Positions 21 to 58,438 are shown, counted from the first letter of the stretch. The stretch: 58,438 nucleotides of DNA from Parcubacteria bacterium C7867-006 (GCA_001189155.1 LFCP01000007.1:1-58438); one strand, 5' to 3'. Notes: a model not told the origin generated them from the letters alone. Program-made: numbers and translations.

Positions 21-147
21 TTAAAAATCCTTTCTCCTCATAACTTTTTCGGAAACAGAATAATTTTCTGCTGAAAATTTTCTTCGCGCTCGTCTCTTCA
101 CGGACTCCGCGATGTTCCGAAAAAATTATGAGTCAACGGATTTTAAA
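21..147. repeat. Family-1 structured palindromic repeat, copy A (conserved block 31-138); its right arm contains the polA start codon
   Basis: The 108-nt block is ~94% identical to 42505-42612. A 20-bp terminal stem pairs CTCATAACTTTTTCGGAAACA with TGTTCCGAAAAAATTATGAG. An outer stem pairs TTAAAAATCC with GGATTTTAA. There is an inner AGAATAATTTTC/GAAAATTTTCTT hairpin. Confidence 0.85.
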
Positions 148-2579: not shown

Positions 2580-3293
2580 ATGTTATACGTAATCTACGGA
2601 ACAGATACACACAAAGCTAGAGCAAAACTTCACGATCTTTTGGATTTGGCCAAAAAGAAACGTCCTGAAGCTGAACTCTTTAAAATAACTACAGAAAACT
2701 GGAGCGAGGCTCAGTTTGATGAACTTCTGGTCGCTCAGGGGTTGTTTGAACAAAAATACACAACGGTTTTAGATAACTTGTTTGAAAAGAAAGATATAAA
2801 AAATTATGTAATGGATAGATTGGATGGGATGAAGGAGTCAGAGCAGATATTTTTGATGTTAGAGTCGTCCATTGATGCTGCTAGTTTGAAAAAGTTAGAA
2901 AAGTTTGGAGAGAAGGTCCAGGAGTTTGAGAAAAAGGAAGACAAAAAACCAAACATAAATATTTTTTCTATCACAGATGGACTGGTTCAAAAAGATAAAA
3001 AGAAACTTTGGATTTCATATATTGATTTGCTTGGAAAGGGAGCTGTAGCAGAGGAGATTCACGGAATAATATTTTGGCAGGTGAAAAATATGGTTCTAGC
3101 TAGTAGGGCAGGAAGCGCGGGAGAGACAGGGCTTTCTCCTTTTGTTTATAAAAATGCACTAACGGGGGCGAGGAACTACAAGACAGAAGAGCTCCAAAAA
3201 ATGTCAGGTGAGTTAGTGGATATGACTCATAGAGTGAGACAGGGAAAAGGGGAACTAGAGGTTATGATTGAAAAGTGGGTATTGAATCTTTAG
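2580..3293 (+). CDS. DNA polymerase III delta subunit-like protein (HolA-like), short form
   Basis: 237-aa ORF directly after polA. The N-terminal YGTD...AEL pattern and overall helical, K/E-rich layout resemble the clamp-loader delta subunit. By-eye call only. Confidence 0.4.
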   Translation: MLYVIYGTDTHKARAKLHDLLDLAKKKRPEAELFKITTENWSEAQFDELLVAQGLFEQKYTTVLDNLFEKKDIKNYVMDRLDGMKESEQIFLMLESSIDAASLKKLEKFGEKVQEFEKKEDKKPNINIFSITDGLVQKDKKKLWISYIDLLGKGAVAEEIHGIIFWQVKNMVLASRAGSAGETGLSPFVYKNALTGARNYKTEELQKMSGELVDMTHRVRQGKGELEVMIEKWVLNL

Positions 3294-3470: not shown

Positions 3471-3546
3471 GCGCCCGTAGCTCAGTCGGTAGAGCAGCTC
3501 CCTTTTAAGGAGAGGGTCGCAGGTTCGATTCCTGCCGGGCGCACCA
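3471..3546 (+). tRNA. tRNA-Lys (anticodon TTT), CCA encoded
   Basis: Cloverleaf with acceptor GCGCCCG/CGGGCGC, anticodon loop CTTTTAA, T-arm GCAGGTTCGATTCCTGC, and discriminator A followed by CCA. Confidence 0.93.
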
Positions 3547-3689: not shown

Positions 3690-3704
3690 TCCTGCCGGGC
3701 GCAC
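3690..3704 (+). repeat. Direct repeat of the 3' end of tRNA-Lys (att-like scar)
   Basis: TCCTGCCGGGCGCAC at 3690-3704 is identical to 3530-3544, which is the T-stem 3' strand plus the acceptor 3' strand of the tRNA. Confidence 0.8.
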
Positions 3705-5805: not shown

Positions 5806-6705
5806 TTATTTTTGATGCGTGTTGCAAAAATGTGCACTTCTACCACCAATTATTTTTCTTTGTATTACTCCATCACACCCCCTTTTCAAACATTTTTGTT
5901 TTACTCTTCTGTAAACTTTGTGAGCGTTCTGGAAGTTTCCTTTTTCCCCATAAATATTTCTATAGTCAGACATTGAGTCTCCACCCATTTTAATAGAGTG
6001 TTCCAGTATTTCTCCTGTGGCTTTCCATATGTCTTTTATTTCTTTATCCATTAAACTCCCCGGTTTTCTTTCTGGGTGAATGTTTGCGGTCCAGAGTATT
6101 TCGTCAGAATATATGTTTCCAATACCTGCTATTACACTCTGGTCCATTAAAACAGTTTTTATATCCCAGTTTGGTTTGGTCAGAATCTGTTTTTTCAAAG
6201 TTTCTTTTGAAAGGTTATCTAGAGGTTCTGGCCCAAGTCCAACTAGGTCTATGTGAGAGTTCTTTTTATCTGTCTCAAACATTAAAACTTTTGCAAATTT
6301 TCTCATATCTGAAAATGCTAAAGATTTTCCGTTTGATAGGTTGAATATAAGATGGATAAATTTATTGAACGGATCAGATAGGAGAGGAGCATCACTTTTC
6401 CATTTTTTACCATCCCACTCGTATTTACCATACAAAAGGTGCCCGGTCATTTTCATATGAATCAAAACAGTTTTGTTGTTAGTAAAATGTATCAATACAT
6501 TTTTTCCTCTTCTTTCTGCTGACTTAAATTTTTCTCCCATGAGCTCATTTCTGAATTTTCCAAAGTATTTTTTATTTTTTATATTGTCAGTTCTTTTGTT
6601 TGCAGTTTTTATATAGTAATCAGACCACACATCTTTGATGGTAAGTTTTGGCATAACCTCATTAAGTCCATTAACCGTTGTTGTTACTTCTGGTAGCTCA
6701 GGCAT
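5806..6705 (-). CDS. mutM: Formamidopyrimidine-DNA glycosylase / Fpg-Nei family
   Basis: Starts with MPELPEV (catalytic Pro2, Glu3). H2TH region and C-terminal Cys-rich zinc-finger-like segment are present. Confidence 0.9.
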   Translation of the reverse strand: MPELPEVTTTVNGLNEVMPKLTIKDVWSDYYIKTANKRTDNIKNKKYFGKFRNELMGEKFKSAERRGKNVLIHFTNNKTVLIHMKMTGHLLYGKYEWDGKKWKSDAPLLSDPFNKFIHLIFNLSNGKSLAFSDMRKFAKVLMFETDKKNSHIDLVGLGPEPLDNLSKETLKKQILTKPNWDIKTVLMDQSVIAGIGNIYSDEILWTANIHPERKPGSLMDKEIKDIWKATGEILEHSIKMGGDSMSDYRNIYGEKGNFQNAHKVYRRVKQKCLKRGCDGVIQRKIIGGRSAHFCNTHQK

Positions 6706-9840: not shown

Positions 9841-10198
9841 TAAAATTGAACATAAACCAACAATAACAATAGATGATTTTCACAAACTAGAAATAAAAAT
9901 CGGACATATTTTGTCTGCTGAAAAAATTCCAGATGCGGATAAACTTTTAAAGTTATCTGTTGATATGGGGGAGGAAAAACCACGGCAAATAGTTTCTGGT
10001 ATTTCTGCATATTTTCCTGAGCCAGAAAAATTAGTTGGTAAAAAATGTGCCTTTGCAGCAAATCTTGAGCCGAGAGTAATTAGGGGTTTAGAAAGTCAGG
10101 GGATGATACTTGCAGTTAGTGGTGTTGATGGAGAAAATAATTTTTTCTCTTTGCTTGAAACTTTAGATAGTGTTGTTCCTGGTTCAACTGTGAAATAA
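9833..10198 (+). CDS. Stand-alone tRNA-binding (EMAP/Trbp111/CsaA-like) domain protein
   Basis: 121 aa. LEIKIGHILSAEKIPDADKLLKLSVDMGEE...QIVSGI...LEPRVIRGLESQGMILA matches the OB-fold domain usually found at the C-terminus of MetRS. Confidence 0.85.
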   Translation: MDNKIEHKPTITIDDFHKLEIKIGHILSAEKIPDADKLLKLSVDMGEEKPRQIVSGISAYFPEPEKLVGKKCAFAANLEPRVIRGLESQGMILAVSGVDGENNFFSLLETLDSVVPGSTVK

Positions 10199-12333: not shown

Positions 12334-12669
12334 ATGTTAGATAAAATTAAACAAATCAAAGACTGGTTTAAAAAGGTAACCAAAACAAAAAACTCTTATG
12401 AAAAGGGTGAAATAAAACCAACAAGAGATTGGCGAGTTATTTTGACTACAACTTTTTTTGTTTTAGTTATTCTTGGTGGAGTCGCCAGTTTTTTCTATTT
12501 TCAGGTCAGTAATGGGAGTTTGTTTTCAGTATCACCAGATATGAGTGATGGAGAAATTAAAATAAATAGGCCTCTTTTTGATAAAGCTGTTGCTGATATT
12601 AATATTCGAAAAACTGTATTTGAACGTGTAAAAGATGGTAAAAATATTCCATCAGACCCATCTTTATAG
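12334..12669 (+). CDS. Single-pass membrane protein, last gene of the pilMNO cluster
   Basis: 111-aa ORF abutting the pilO-like gene, with one TM helix. Confidence 0.5.
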   Translation: MLDKIKQIKDWFKKVTKTKNSYEKGEIKPTRDWRVILTTTFFVLVILGGVASFFYFQVSNGSLFSVSPDMSDGEIKINRPLFDKAVADINIRKTVFERVKDGKNIPSDPSL

Positions 12670-12715
12670 TTTTTCGATTCTTATCTAGATGCGTGCTTTG
12701 TATAGGTATTTTTTG

Positions 12716-12787
12716 TGCTCTCGGTAAGAATCGAACTTACATCAGCGGCTTAGAAGTCCGCGGTTCTATCCATTGAACTACGAGAGC
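12716..12787 (-). tRNA. tRNA-Arg (anticodon TCT)
   Basis: The reverse complement has acceptor GCTCTCG/CGAGAGC, anticodon loop CTTCTAA and T-arm GTAAGTTCGATTCTTAC. Confidence 0.85.
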
Positions 12788-12789
12788 AT

Positions 12790-12865
12790 TGGTGCGCGAT
12801 ACAGGACTCGAACCTGTGACCTACCCGGTGTAAACGGGTTGCTCTACCAACTGAGCTAACCGCGC
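12790..12865 (-). tRNA. tRNA-Val (anticodon TAC), CCA encoded
   Basis: The reverse complement reads GCGCGGTTAGCTCAGTTGGTAGAGC..., with anticodon loop TTTACAC, T-arm ACAGGTTCGAGTCCTGT and ...ATCGCGCACCA. Confidence 0.9.
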
Positions 12866-12922
12866 GTGAATTCAGAATAACCTAGATTGTCTCTTTTGTA
12901 AAATGAGGGTACAATGTTTTAA

Positions 12923-13597
12923 ATGAAAATACCGAACTGCGTTGGGATTATATTGGATGGGAACAGAACGTGGGCTAAAAACAAAGGACTGCCTAAGTTA
13001 GAGGGGCATCGGGTCGGACTTCAAACACTAAAAGCTACAACTCTTTTTGTCCGTGATGCTGGGGTTAAGCATCTAGTTGTTTATATGTTTTCTACCGAAA
13101 ACTGGGGAAGAGAGCCATTAGAGGTGTCATATCTTCTAGATCTTTTTCGTAGTTCAATAAAAAATGAAATAAGTGAACTTGGAAAGGAAGGGGTGCGGAT
13201 TCGTTTTGTGGGTCAACGAGAAAGATTTAGCAAAGATTTACAGGAAGCAATGGAAAGTACTGAAAAAGATACTGAAAATAATTCGGGTATTACTTTATGG
13301 GCCTGTATGTCGTACGGTGGTAGGGCAGAGATAACACAAGCAGTAAAATCTCTTATTAACTCTGGCGAAGAAATAACAGAAGAAAATATAAGTAAGAATT
13401 TATGGACTTCTGGAATGCCTGATCCGGATATTATCATTCGAACATCTGGTCAAATGAGGCTTTCAGGTTTCCTAGCTTGGCAGAGTATTTATAGTGAGCT
13501 ATTTTTCATAAAAACACTTTGGCCAGATTTTTCTAAAGAAGAATTTGAAAAAATTCTAACAGAGTATAACGATAGAGAGATAAAACTAGGTAAATAA
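12923..13597 (+). CDS. uppS: Undecaprenyl diphosphate synthase (cis-prenyltransferase)
   Basis: 224 aa with GIILDGNRTWAK, FSTENWGR and RTSGQMRLSGFLAWQ motifs. Confidence 0.93.
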   Translation: MKIPNCVGIILDGNRTWAKNKGLPKLEGHRVGLQTLKATTLFVRDAGVKHLVVYMFSTENWGREPLEVSYLLDLFRSSIKNEISELGKEGVRIRFVGQRERFSKDLQEAMESTEKDTENNSGITLWACMSYGGRAEITQAVKSLINSGEEITEENISKNLWTSGMPDPDIIIRTSGQMRLSGFLAWQSIYSELFFIKTLWPDFSKEEFEKILTEYNDREIKLGK

Positions 13598-14343: not shown

Positions 14344-14760
14344 ATGGAAATTCAGTCACCAGTAAAAATCGCTGACCGAAAAAACTTTGATATCAGATCA
14401 GGGGATACAGTTCGTGTTTGGCAAAAAATTCAGGAAAAAGACAAAATCAGACTTCAGGCTTTTGAGGGTTTGGTTATAGCTGTTAAGCATGGAAAAGAGG
14501 CTGGAGCTACTTTTACAGTTAGACGAGTAGCATCTGGAGTAGGAGTTGAAAAAATATTCCCACTATACTCTCCAATGATTGATTCTATTGAAACAGTAAA
14601 AAGATCAAAAGTAAGGCGAGCAAAGTTGTATCACGTAAGAGATAAAGCAGCAAAGGAAATTAGACGACAAATGAGAAATATTCGAGCTCTTCCAGACAAT
14701 ACTCCAAGTGAGGAAGAAGTAGTAGAAGAAGCTCCAGCAGAAGAGGCAAAAGCAGAATAA
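14344..14760 (+). CDS. rplS: 50S ribosomal protein L19 with an acidic C-terminal tail
   Basis: 138 aa with FDIRSGDTVRV...RLQAFEGLVIA...GATFTVRR...GVEKIFPLYSP. Confidence 0.92.
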   Translation: MEIQSPVKIADRKNFDIRSGDTVRVWQKIQEKDKIRLQAFEGLVIAVKHGKEAGATFTVRRVASGVGVEKIFPLYSPMIDSIETVKRSKVRRAKLYHVRDKAAKEIRRQMRNIRALPDNTPSEEEVVEEAPAEEAKAE

Positions 14761-14763
14761 TCA

Positions 14764-14787
14764 AAAACTCCCGAAAGGGAGTTTTTG
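14764..14787 (+). terminator. Intrinsic terminator after rplS
   Basis: AAAAACTCCC-GAAA-GGGAGTTTTT. Confidence 0.8.
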
Positions 14788-28299: not shown

Positions 28300-28490
28300 T
28301 TTAGCGATTGAGGGGAATAATCAACCCCGAGCTAACTAGGAAGAAAGCCTGTTGGTGAGTAGAACCTAGCGGGTAAGCCCGTTATAGTTGTAATGAGATC
28401 TGTCGATAAGGCAGAAAACAAGGTGGTACCACGAAGAAATTCGTCCTTGCTTAGGAACAGTATGTTCCTGTGCGAGGACGAATTTTTTAT
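28300..28490 (+). promoter_or_regulatory. T-box leader (tRNA-sensing riboswitch) controlling ileS
   Basis: Conserved T-box core AACAAGGTGGTACCACG (28417-28433, UGGU bulge). It overlaps the 5' arm of a terminator pairing AAATTCGTCCT (28437-28447) with AGGACGAATTT (28475-28485), followed by a T-run. Stem I-like GGTGAGT and AGAAA elements lie at ~28340-28365. A TATAGT -10 box is at 28291. Confidence 0.75.
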
Positions 28491-41389: not shown

Positions 41390-42478
41390 TTATTCTTCAG
41401 AGCTAGGGGATTCGCCACCACTAACAGCCACTACAGACCCACCATTTTTTGCCAAACCAGAACGAATATCTTTTAGGATACTATCTGCGATTTTTTTGTT
41501 TGCTTTATCTTTTAGGAACTGGCGAGTAGCATCATAGCCACGGCCTAGTTTCTCCTCACCATATGAGTATGAAGTCCCAGACTTTGTGATAACCCCCATC
41601 TTTTCACCAAGAGCGATAAGTTCACCCTCGCGAGAGATGCCTTCGTTGTACATTAGATCAAACTCTGTTTGTTTGAATGGAGCAGCAACTTTGTTTTTTA
41701 CAACTTTTACTCTGATACGTCCTCCCATAATCTCTTCACCCTTCTTTATCTGGGCTATTCGGCGGATATCGATACGTACAGAAGTGTAGAACTTTAGAGC
41801 TTTTCCTCCGGGAGTTGTTTCTGGGTTGCCAAACATAACACCAATCTGCATTCTGATTTGGTTGATGAATATAACTATAGTTTTTGATCTAGCCACAATA
41901 GCTGTTAATTTTCTTAAGGCCTGTGACATTAGTCTAGCCTGCTTTCCAACGTGGTGTGCTCCCATATCTCCCTCAATTTCATCCTTTGGGGTTAGTGCTG
42001 CAACAGAGTCGATAACAATAACATCTAGTTTTCCAGAGCGGACAAGGGAATCGACTATCTCGAGTGCTTGCTCACCATTATCTGGTTGAGAGATAAGTAG
42101 TTGATCTATGTTTACTCCAAGTCGTTTAGCGTATTCAGGATCCATTGAGTGTTCTGCGTCAATGAATGCACAGATACCGCCTTTTTTCTGTGCTTCTGCA
42201 ATAACATGAAGAGTGAGAGTTGTTTTTCCAGATGACTCTGGGCCAAACACTTCTATTATTCTTCCACGAGGAAGTCCACCAACACCGAGTGCAGCATCTA
42301 GTCCGATTGAGCCAGTTGATATTGAATCAACATCAACGTGAGGCTTGTCGCCAAGCATCATAATAGAGTCATCGCCAAATTTAGTTCGTATCTCGCGAAG
42401 AGTATTTTCTACTGCCGCAGCTCCACCTTTGCTGTCCACAGGATCTCTCTTAGGTTCTTTTTCTGTTTTTTTCTTCAT
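41390..42478 (-). CDS. recA: Recombinase RecA
   Basis: 362 aa with [10 protein letters not shown] (Walker A), IVIDSVAAL, and [22 protein letters not shown]. Confidence 0.97.
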
Positions 42479-42494
42479 TTTTATTATTTTGTTA

Positions 42495-42620
42495 AGAAAT
42501 TTCTTTTCTCCTCATAACTTTTTTGGAAACAGAATAATTTTCTGCTGAAAATTTTCTTCGCGCTCGTGTCTTCATGCACTCCGCGATGTTCCAAAAAAGT
42601 TATGAGTCAACGAAATTTCT
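42495..42620. repeat. Family-1 structured palindromic repeat, copy B, immediately upstream of recA in the opposite orientation
   Basis: The 108-nt block 42505-42612 matches 31-138 with ~6 mismatches. The terminal stem is a perfect 20 bp with one bulge. The outer stem is formed by the self-complementary AGAAATTTCT on both sides. Confidence 0.85.
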
Positions 42621-42625
42621 AATTG

Positions 42626-42979
42626 TTAATACTCTTTTAATATAATTTCCAACCTTTTTTCCGTATAATTCTTGAACTTATCGCGAGCATCTAGTTTAAT
42701 TATATTATAGCCAGGGGATAGGAGCAATTTCTCAGAAAAGTATCCATTTTTATCTGTGAAAATGGGTCTATCGTTTAGGTTTAGATAGGCAATATTACGA
42801 GCTCGACCCTCTATTTCTATTAATGTTTGGTTGTATGTAGCTCCGTTTTCGGGGGTATATATGTCTATAACAGGGCCTCTAATCAGTTTTTGGGCTTGGA
42901 ATAGGGAATATCCAGCAATTACTATGACCAGTAGAGAAATAAGGCTGGTCCTGAGAATTGATATAGCGTTCCTGTTCAT
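42626..42979 (-). CDS. Membrane-anchored small Ig-like protein (hypothetical)
   Basis: 117 aa with an N-terminal TM helix and a beta-rich domain. Confidence 0.5.
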   Translation of the reverse strand: MNRNAISILRTSLISLLVIVIAGYSLFQAQKLIRGPVIDIYTPENGATYNQTLIEIEGRARNIAYLNLNDRPIFTDKNGYFSEKLLLSPGYNIIKLDARDKFKNYTEKRLEIILKEY

Positions 42980-51378: not shown

Positions 51379-51417
51379 CCAATCAAAAACACTCCATATG
51401 GAGTGTTTTTGATTGGT
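51379..51417 (+). terminator. Long-stem intrinsic terminator
   Basis: CCAATCAAAAACACTCC-ATAT-GGAGTGTTTTTGATTGG. Confidence 0.75.
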
Positions 51418-51602: not shown

Positions 51603-52907
51603 ATGTTGAGGCGATTGCTTCTAATAGTTTTATTACTTTCGTTCAATACTGCTTATGCAGAAGTTAGTCAGTTTGTTTTTATTACAGAACCTCAAATAAT
51701 ACCAGTTAACACAAACTCTGAAACCATTACTATTCAGTCTCAGAATTCAGATGGTATCTCCGAAAATATAACAGAGACAAATGATTTGGTGTTTTCATCC
51801 ACTTCCGGAACAGGGGAGTTTCTAAGCACTTCTGGCAATCCTGTTACAACAACAATGTCAAAAAATACAGCTAATAAGAATTTTCTGTATAAAGACTCTA
51901 CTCCTGGTACTTACACAATTACAGTTACAGCAACAGGTAGGACAAATTTGAAAACTTTTTCTGCAAGCCAACAGATTGTTGTTGGATCTTCTGCCTCTGG
52001 TAACACAGATACAGCAACAACAACACAAGAGGAGGTGACTTCGACTTCCCCACCGCAGACAAATAATTATTCGGCACATTCATCACCTGCTCCACTTAGT
52101 ACAACTGAAAATAAAATAGATTTTGAAATATCGGCTGGTCGGGACAGACTAACATCTGTTGGTAATCAAGTTGTTTTAAAAGCCGTAGCAACAAAGACTC
52201 AAAATGTTTCAGAACAAAACATCTCCTACGCTTGGTCGTTTGGGGATGGAACTGTTGGTTTGGGTAGCACAGTTAGTCACTCATATAGGTTTCCTGGAAA
52301 TTATAATGTGGTTCTGAATGGCTCATATTCTGATAAACAAGCTGTAAGCAGAATATCTATTAAAGTTGTTTTGTCAGAGCTAACAATATCAAGGCTTGTT
52401 GGTGGATATGAGGTTACAAATAAGTCAAAATCTGAGATTAATTTGGGTGACTGGAGTCTGGTAAGTGACAAAAAATCTTTTGTTTTTCCCGCAGATACTC
52501 TTATTCCATCTGGAGAGAAAATAGTTTTTGCTGACGAGATAACTGGTTTAATGGATGGGGAAGTAAAACTTTTAAATCCTTTAGGGAAGTCTTTTGCAGT
52601 CTATACGAGCAATATTGGTTTAGTTGCTGGAGCAAATATTAGCAATACTGAAGTTATTGATGTTGAGAAAATTCAGGCTAAAATAGATGAAGTGAAAAAT
52701 ACAGTCTCTCAAATCTCAACTCAAATTAACCCAAAACCTTCGGTAAAAGTTGCAACAGAAAAAGCTCCAGAGACTCCTAAAAATGAGGACCAGTTAGCTA
52801 ATGTTGTTCAGGTTTTTGAAGCTCCACAGAGAAATGGTCTTTCTGCACAGATAATGTCTTGGCCGGTTAGGGGTTTTAGTTTTATAAAACACCTATTTGT
52901 TGAATAA
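51603..52907 (+). CDS. Secreted protein with PKD-like and lamin-tail (LTD) domains
   Basis: 434 aa. Signal peptide, PKD signature YAWSFGDGTVGLGSTVSHSYRFPGNYNV, and LTD-like LGDWSLVSDKKSFVFPADTLIPSGEKIVF. Confidence 0.7.
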   Translation: MLRRLLLIVLLLSFNTAYAEVSQFVFITEPQIIPVNTNSETITIQSQNSDGISENITETNDLVFSSTSGTGEFLSTSGNPVTTTMSKNTANKNFLYKDSTPGTYTITVTATGRTNLKTFSASQQIVVGSSASGNTDTATTTQEEVTSTSPPQTNNYSAHSSPAPLSTTENKIDFEISAGRDRLTSVGNQVVLKAVATKTQNVSEQNISYAWSFGDGTVGLGSTVSHSYRFPGNYNVVLNGSYSDKQAVSRISIKVVLSELTISRLVGGYEVTNKSKSEINLGDWSLVSDKKSFVFPADTLIPSGEKIVFADEITGLMDGEVKLLNPLGKSFAVYTSNIGLVAGANISNTEVIDVEKIQAKIDEVKNTVSQISTQINPKPSVKVATEKAPETPKNEDQLANVVQVFEAPQRNGLSAQIMSWPVRGFSFIKHLFVE

Positions 52908-55629: not shown

Positions 55630-55653
55630 GTTTGTAAACAGACTTAACAAAAT

Positions 55654-55675
55654 ACTCCCGAAAGGGTGTTTTTTG
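55654..55675 (+). terminator. Intrinsic terminator
   Basis: ACTCCC-GAAA-GGGTGTTTTTTG. Confidence 0.7.

Positions 55676-56149: not shown

Positions 56150-58438
<2,289 letters not shown>

Follow-up and report, generated by a model that had tools for sequence, protein, structure and literature searches.

A branched palindromic repeat of about 127 bp in Parcubacteria intergenic spacers, with one copy between the polA promoter and the polA start codon

Copies of the element and the polA start codon

The window, by which we mean the whole 58,438-nucleotide stretch of Parcubacteria bacterium C7867-006 DNA analysed here, begins within the spacer between tsaE and polA. Its first eight positions (1–8, +) carry an extended −10 promoter for polA, (T)GTTATAAT, with TATAAT at 3–8 and the T of the TG immediately preceding position 1; TGnTATAAT is conserved in eight of nine relatives, where it follows or overlaps the tsaE stop. 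Between this promoter and the polA start lies a full copy of a structured element, copy A (21–147, +), which scores 159.7 bits against a covariance model built from 19 copies of the family. Copy A consists of an outer stem, P0 (24–30/138–144), an internal loop with unequal strands (TTTCTC at 31–36 and TCAAC at 133–137) and a second stem, P1 (37–54/115–132), which encloses two hairpins: P2 (57–83), an AT-rich dyad with a bulged T at 61 and a TGCT loop at 69–72, and the GC-rich P3 (84–112). The polA gene itself (152–2509, +) encodes a DNA polymerase I of 785 aa, and its ATG is unpaired, 7 nt past the last pair of P0.

A second full copy, copy B (42495–42621, +; 158.7 bits), is flanked by two minus-strand genes, recA (41390–42478; PF00154), whose start is 16 nt away, and a gene for a 117-aa protein, orf117 (42626–42979), whose stop is 4 nt away. 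Copy A is sense to tsaE–polA, and copy B is antisense to the gene string ftsK–orf117–recA–efp. Positions 23–144 and 42497–42618 are 91% identical, and the block at 31–138, described in a preliminary description of this DNA as recurring at 42505–42612 with about six mismatches, does so with exactly six. That description knew of two copies only; a third, internally deleted one, copy C (2516–2569, +), occupies the spacer between polA and a holA-like gene (2580–3293, +; DNA polymerase III delta, C-terminal domain, PF21694). Positions 2512–2563 match the element over its 5′ half, with a stretch of 30 identical nucleotides. Copy C keeps the 5′ arm of P0 (GAATATC, 2516–2522), the 5′ loop, the 5′ arm of P1 and that of P2 as far as TGC (2563), and also retains a 3′ arm of P0 (GATATT, 2564–2569); the 3′ arm of P2, all of P3, the 3′ arm of P1 and the 3′ loop have been lost, folding is gone, and the model score is 21 bits (E 0.34). 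One further weak match to the model, at 51646–51798 (−; E 0.88), falls inside a PKD-domain ORF and was taken as chance.

An additional ATG in the polA frame, at 128–130 (+), lies within the 3′ arm of P1 and pairs with 39–41. This much had been proposed earlier, but the accompanying ideas that polA starts at this codon and that the hairpin donated the start do not hold, because the conserved start is ATG 152, which lies outside the hairpin. All relatives, whether they have the element or not, share an N-terminus M-[VA]-K-x-K that aligns with the one beginning at ATG 152; close homologues are mostly 784–785 aa long, and nearly all start at the equivalent of ATG 152; and the 785-aa product is on record, whereas the 793-aa product from ATG 128 is not. 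The element's ATG is in the polA frame by chance and is not conserved in the family, reading TTG, ATA, ACA or ACG elsewhere (ACG in L029; such numbers denote the related loci compared here). A small peptide beginning at this codon (MSQR...) was also rejected: the ATG is unconserved, and in copy B and in L031 an in-frame TAA closes the frame after six codons.

From the usual spacing of 7 ± 1 nt, polA transcription would start near position 15, so that copy A would be transcribed as the polA 5′ leader. At empty sites that keep the promoter (L036, L037 and L033), the promoter ends 6 nt before the start codon, a usual spacing that implies a leaderless polA mRNA in these genomes. The conserved promoter upstream, together with the start at ATG 152, thus points to insertion of copy A into a formerly leaderless polA mRNA. 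Copy A gives polA a predicted structured leader of about 135 nt that ends 7 nt before AUG 152. It is plausible that such a leader alters polA expression; an effect on polA expression cannot be the reason for the existence of the element. More generally, a TAnnnT −10 box that ends 7–8 nt before the ATG precedes many genes of the window (uppS, cysS, ssb, ruvA, ruvX and others; the gene starts examined include 12923, 37068, 39885, 7579(−) and 9457), and Shine–Dalgarno-like motifs are rare, a combination that suggests widespread leaderless transcription in this genome. For the same two reasons, sequestration of a Shine–Dalgarno sequence by the hairpin was rejected as an explanation.

Fold, covariation and strand behaviour

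Copies A and B form the same branched hairpin, in which the outer stem P0 and the asymmetric loop lead into P1, and P1 encloses P2 and P3. The calculated RNA folding energies are −39.4 kcal/mol for copy A and −44.9 kcal/mol for copy B (z −6.9 and −9.5), and none of 200 shuffles folds as well, which bears out the long hairpin with an internal dyad and a GC-rich segment that was originally described. The opposite strand folds equally significantly, and either strand treated as single-stranded DNA gives z between −7.0 and −10.5. Four of the six differences between copies A and B make up two compensatory pairs, 50:119 (C:G to T:A) and 94:103 (C:G to G:C); of the other two, the A-to-G change at 125 closes a bulge and the change at 101 lies in the P3 loop, with the result that no difference breaks a pair. 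The covariation is stronger than first claimed, when the C:G to T:A exchange, now confirmed as 50:119, was the one pair exchange noticed within the block. The outer stem is indeed complementary in both copies, but its extensions are not the unrelated sequences they had been taken for: across 32 copies P0 has the consensus AAAAUYUC/GARAUUUU, and only its outermost 2–6 bp are specific to a copy.

Four helices are common to all copies in A4, an alignment of 32 full copies fitted to the covariance model. Standard pairs occupy 94.8% of the paired cells of A4, compared with 76% after shuffling and 41–57% when partners are slid, and 36 of the 42 pairs have changed on both sides; RNAalifold, applied to an independent MAFFT alignment, gave 22 of the 42. 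The P2 stem appeared invariant in the first set of copies, an artefact of the search patterns. In divergent copies, AAUUUUC/GAAAAUU is replaced by ACCCGCC/GGCGGGU, AAAUCGU/ACGAUUU or AAAUCAC/GUGAUUU, and the bulged pyrimidine and a UNNU loop are kept throughout. The asymmetric internal loop is conserved (5′ UCUUUCUC, 3′ UCAACGA), as are unpaired nucleotides of the loop and junction in the family. Together, the P0 and P1 arms constitute an imperfect inverted repeat some 25–30 bp long, complementary in all copies, with ends that covary rather than being invariant. The tip of P3 is variable and contains insertions of 55–75 nt in L003, L010, L013, L009 and L038. The 75-nt insertion of L003 (5995–6070) holds a 19-mer, ATGCTCAAGGTCTTGCGGA, a variant of which, ATGCTCAAGACTTGCGGA, occurs about 110 nt downstream (6150–6175), outside the element; this 19-mer may be another small nested repeat.

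A very stable fold with strong covariation, conserved unpaired loop and junction nucleotides, conservation above that of adjoining coding DNA, and the position of copy A inside the polA leader, 3′ of a conserved promoter, would all be expected of a functional structured RNA. Such an RNA could act as a leader that regulates in cis, as a module for processing or as the product of a small RNA gene, with the three-way junction selected as RNA and polA initiation occluded. We regard this explanation as quite unlikely, because the element does not behave as a transcript of one strand. Between co-directional genes, 12 copies are sense and 10 are antisense, and copies are not consistently sense and upstream of one coherent set of genes, as riboswitch-type features would be. 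Moreover, in functional RNAs G·U is normally accepted much more readily than A·C, whereas the element has 24 G·U and 23 A·C overall, and even on the transcribed strand the ratios are 8:8 for sense and 7:7 for antisense copies. These counts are small, at about 15 in each class of oriented copies, and show no RNA-type excess of G·U over A·C; a 3:1 bias towards G·U would be hard to reconcile with them.

Signals for separate transcription are likewise missing from the regions scanned. Upstream of the element, −10-like hexamers number 19 against 15, with no enrichment and no positional peak that would indicate a dedicated promoter, and scans for sigma-70 promoters and for terminators, run around copies A, B and C, gave no hit within the elements and no intrinsic terminator. 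The polA leaders of L036, L037, L033 and L038 are without the element, and that of L041 has it inverted. Copy C has decayed, the neighbouring genes are unrelated, the element matches no Rfam family, and the codon that the hairpin would occlude, ATG 128, is not the polA start. We conclude that the element is unlikely to be a strand-specific RNA. The earlier suggestion of a dedicated translational or transcriptional control element for polA is not supported, on the same points: unrelated neighbours, equal numbers of sense and antisense copies, absence from close relatives and the lack of a G·U signature.

Distribution of the family and turnover at orthologous spacers

Copies were first gathered with exact 21–25-mers, as a result of which one subfamily is over-represented. 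The covariance model added divergent copies, some in the 8-kb pieces that these had recovered and some in loci anchored on polA, and several short contigs proved to hold two copies. This brings the family to more than 30 copies, spread over about 20 contigs of Patescibacteria/Parcubacteria. When metagenome contigs were scanned for exact matches to the 21-mer GGAAACAGAATAATTTTCTGC, six further loci came to light. A P2-hairpin pattern matched 23 genome contigs, 15 of which contain the complete element and all of these are Patescibacteria MAGs; the remaining eight matches lie outside Patescibacteria (L011, L015, L019, L023–L025, L027 and L030; Paenibacillus, Bacteroidales and others) and were attributed to chance, as the rest of the element is missing. 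The neighbours are unrelated housekeeping genes (recA, polA, topA, ruvB, rnc, ftsA, scpAB, mreB, adk/map, rpoD, glyA and others), and the element almost wholly occupies the spacer in which it resides, leaving 0–50 nt to the adjoining ORFs. With two full copies and one deleted copy in 58 kb of the window, and about two in 65 kb of polA-anchored loci, the density extrapolates to roughly one per 20–30 kb.

Judged by its PolA homologues, the window belongs among Parcubacteria/Paceibacterota/Minisyncoccia, near Zambryskibacteria (78% identity). Copy B and its L029 ortholog are 94% identical, compared with nucleotide identities of 86% for the flanking recA and 80% for orf117; L029 comes from a MAG labelled 'Saccharibacteria', and a recA this close to that of the window means that the submitters' 'Saccharibacteria' labels must be taken loosely. 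Searches of other collections gave no match to the element, whether in viral contigs and phage and plasmid collections or by blastn (word 11) against 5,426 complete E. coli genomes. In Rfam 15 nothing reached the gathering threshold, and the best hit of a permissive search (E up to 10) scored 16.7 bits against a threshold of 76. The literature searched describes no CPR repeat of this kind, and a large MITE survey makes no mention of Patescibacteria (PMC11602168).

This distribution bears directly on the idea that the polA 5′ region was recently duplicated within this genome. Seen from the window alone, with just two near-identical full copies, a local duplication is a natural reading. It is refuted, and we give it virtually no weight, by the recovery of more than 30 copies from about 20 contigs of many MAGs and metagenomes, next to unrelated genes; the N-terminal coding sequence of polA, which lies outside the repeat, also argues against it.

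Gain and loss are seen at spacers that can be compared among relatives. Gene order around polA is kept in these genomes. The tsaE–polA spacer contains the element in the same orientation in the window, in L039/L040 (PolA 93%) and in L031 (91%), and in reverse orientation in L041 (92%); it is without the element in L036 (92%), L037 (90%), L033 (85%) and L038 (86%), where the genes overlap or are separated by 7 or 22 nt. In the Zambryskibacteria-like L034/L035 (PolA 78%), this spacer holds at 9850–10000 another long palindrome, AT-rich and about 130 nt in length, AATTTTCAATTTACAATTTTTAATTTTCAA...TTGAGAATTAGAAATTAGAAATT, a second family of hairpins at this hot spot. The pattern of filled and empty sites is patchy on the PolA tree, in which the filled L031 and the empty L037 are sisters. 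L039 shares the outer stems and flanks of the window, including the unusual ...ATCC/GGAT... base of P0, and has the inner core of another subfamily, suggesting core replacement or gene conversion in place. In a similar way, L041 and L031 share the P0 sequence AACTTC/GAAGTT in orientations inverted relative to each other, suggesting inversion in place.

Other spacers behave alike. The polA–holA spacer is 2–5 nt long in L036, L037, L039 and L033, contains a full 183-nt element in L038 and has copy C in the window; in the nusB–rnc spacer, the element points one way in L016 and the other way in L022; and the ruvB–yebC spacer is filled in L017 and 9 nt long in the window's own genome. About 20 copies show no consistent direct repeat outside P0, and filled and empty sites have diverged to only about 80–86% nucleotide identity in their flanks, so that junctions cannot be placed exactly and a target-site duplication is not readable. 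A pre-existing palindromic target as the source of the outer stem was rejected, since the empty sites (L036, L037, L033 and L039) are 2–7 nt long and without a palindrome, and since the family consensus of P0 also contradicts it. In L031, a LOG-family gene (lysine-decarboxylase-like, PF03641) is found between polA and holA at 12367–12945, an insertion that marks the polA–holA junction as a general insertion hot spot. The ruvB–yebC spacers of L031 (4914–5252) and L033 (3720–4104), where the minus-strand gene order is ruvB to yebC, carry GC-rich non-coding inserts of 340–385 nt in otherwise AT-rich genomes; these inserts have no Rfam match.

The patchiness of occupancy among close relatives also weighs on a different kind of host function, namely that the element is a domesticated DNA site, a cruciform or hairpin that is bound by a chromosome-organising, replication or recombination protein and kept because it benefits the host. 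Precedents exist in REP/BIME elements, which are bound by gyrase, IHF and Pol I. A site of this type would explain why pairing is strictly Watson–Crick and orientation irrelevant, and why the element is conserved above its coding flanks. It would also suit the DNA-metabolism genes among the neighbours (polA, recA, ruvB, topA, holA/holB, scpAB and smc), although CPR genomes are rich in these anyway, and adk/map, glyA, mreB, ftsA and uppP are neighbours too. Given the patchy occupancy, the one decayed copy and the fact that no candidate binding protein was found, we consider a domesticated DNA site very unlikely.

Comparison with known repeats and a proposed mode of turnover

Several families of short bacterial repeats share features with the element. 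ERIC/IRU elements (enterobacterial repetitive intergenic consensus, RU-1) are imperfect palindromes of ~127 bp, confined to transcribed intergenic spacers in either orientation and conserved in many species. They vary through the loss of internal sequence or the gain of ~70 nt at set internal positions; we know of no transposase for them. The element resembles these repeats, to which RU-2/YPAL and the RU-3 'small mobile sequences' are related, in its length of ~127 bp, its placement in transcribed intergenic spacers in either orientation, its conservation over many species and its internal variants, with insertions in P3 (L003, L010, L013 and L009) and the deletion in copy C. It differs from them in lacking sequence similarity, in its CPR/Patescibacteria host and in its branched interior, with two unlike hairpins and an asymmetric loop, where ERIC is a simple long hairpin.

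In REPINs, the hairpin is kept by compensatory changes, and folding has been proposed to occur in 'ssDNA or mRNA' (PMC3116915). Like REPINs, which are mobilised by RAYT (TnpA-REP), the element is an intergenic, non-autonomous hairpin of the ~100-nt class with invariant blocks and a compensated stem, and it shows both persistence and conservation above neutral DNA. By contrast, P2 and P3 are unrelated in sequence, so that there is no REP doublet and only the outer arms are inverted repeats, and filled and empty sites turn over fast among close relatives. The RAYT (Y1 HUH transposase) gene, which in that system is single-copy and flanked by the repeats, was not found in the 58-kb window or the annotated flanks. 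Similarities to MITEs such as Correia/NEMIS of Neisseria and RUP of Streptococcus pneumoniae include small size, lack of coding capacity, terminal inverted repeats, multiple intergenic copies, co-transcription that adds hairpins to mRNAs, and presence/absence polymorphism; MITE ends are fixed, however, whereas the terminal stem of the element covaries between copies.

The end hairpins of IS200/IS605 elements (HUH) and the attC sites of integrons (IntI) are further points of comparison: they work through a folded single strand and not through sequence, and their conserved extrahelical base recalls the bulged T/C of P2. Here too there are differences, since no transposase, TnpB or integrase lies near the element and no cassette array is present. 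The R″/R′ core of attC (RYYYAAC/GTTRRRY) is not conserved, and the stem positions vary (CATAAC, CAAAAC, CATGAA, TGTAAC and TGTGAC). We treat this resemblance as a lead only. More broadly, neither a transposase nor a recombinase turned up in the window or in about 465 kb of related loci, and no integrase in the window or the annotated flanks. Nor did a search for an autonomous version, such as a parental IS with the same ends, in which the two halves would be split apart, find a candidate: throughout the 465 kb, each 5′ half is accompanied within 260 nt by a 3′ half, the exceptions being copy C and copies of a divergent subfamily that the model had already called full.

Copy A thus belongs to a family of ~127-bp palindromic intergenic repeats in CPR bacteria of the Parcubacteria/Paceibacteria type. 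Taking these comparisons together with the distribution, we think it probable that the family is mobile and non-autonomous, similar in kind to ERIC, REPIN and MITE elements. By sequence or by defining features, the element is none of the three. To our knowledge, and as far as the literature was searched, it is a new family within a known class of bacterial repeats, a class not previously described in the CPR phylum. The MITE-like mobile hairpin envisaged in the preliminary description is supported by the dispersed copies in many genomes, both orientations, presence or absence at orthologous sites and a decayed copy. That description reserved the term plain MITE for copies that were numerous, randomly located and free of compensatory substitutions; the copies are numerous and dispersed, and compensatory substitutions are abundant.

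How might such an element move and be maintained? We propose that it enters very short intergenic spacers in either orientation and then turns over fast, through gain, loss, inversion in place, core replacement and internal deletion. The strict Watson–Crick complementarity, with no excess of wobble pairs, suggests that the fold matters in single-stranded DNA. Folded single-stranded DNA could be the substrate of a trans-acting enzyme encoded elsewhere, in the manner of REPIN/RAYT or IS200/IS605-type recognition. Alternatively or in addition, complementarity could be restored by hairpin-templated repair; Watson–Crick strictness, strand symmetry and the conserved P2 bulge point to either a single-stranded DNA fold or such repair. 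Once inserted, the element would be co-transcribed with its neighbours, and in the window it appears to have landed between the extended −10 promoter and the start of polA, where it would form a structured leader.

Conservation of the core above recA coding DNA, together with conserved unpaired nucleotides, could equally reflect a host function. One broader alternative, which we consider unlikely, is that the element is a CPR-wide structured module under purifying selection, either as the branched single-stranded DNA hairpin substrate of an undescribed transposition or recombination system or as a domesticated module for insertion tolerance. In the domesticated version, streamlined, largely leaderless and Shine–Dalgarno-poor genomes would tolerate or exploit insertions between promoter and start; for example, a double-strand-specific RNase could process the stem in either orientation.

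As a mobile repeat, the element has several implications. The genomes of CPR/Patescibacteria, tiny and streamlined, are believed to contain little mobile DNA, and a 127-nt repeat would offer a handle on how they change. This repeat stands out in being better conserved than recA coding DNA and in repeatedly inserting between a promoter and a leaderless start. For annotation, it supplies spurious in-frame ATGs, as in the 793-aa versus the 785-aa version of PolA. It can also break assemblies and mimic regulatory RNAs in covariation screens, and the covariance model could serve to mask it or to count its copies. Should a dedicated enzyme be found, hairpin-dependent transposition through single-stranded DNA would be extended to a new phylum.

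The window contains other hairpins, a tRNA gene with a short repeat and an rRNA gene. A near-perfect hairpin with 26-nt arms, a 3-nt loop and a T-run at its end lies at 28434–28488, in the gap between an argS-like gene and a gene for a 1154-aa tRNA synthetase. Terminator-like hairpins flanked by an A-tract and a T-tract, AAAAACTCCCGAAAGGGAGTTTTT, form a small family at 14758–14786, 51380–51408 and 55645–55673, and could act as bidirectional terminators. ARAGORN calls the tRNA at 3471–3546 (+) 'Stop, anticodon tta', with the loop CTTTTAA following a GCTCC stem; in the standard register U33-UUU-A37 it looks like an ordinary tRNA-Lys(UUU), and the suppressor call like a one-base ambiguity of register. 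The last 15 nt of this tRNA, TCCTGCCGGGCGCAC, recur 160 nt downstream at 3690–3704, resembling an att-type remnant of integration at a tRNA gene. Finally, a 23S rRNA gene begins at 56150 (+) and occupies the window to its last position, 58438, running past the 3′ end.
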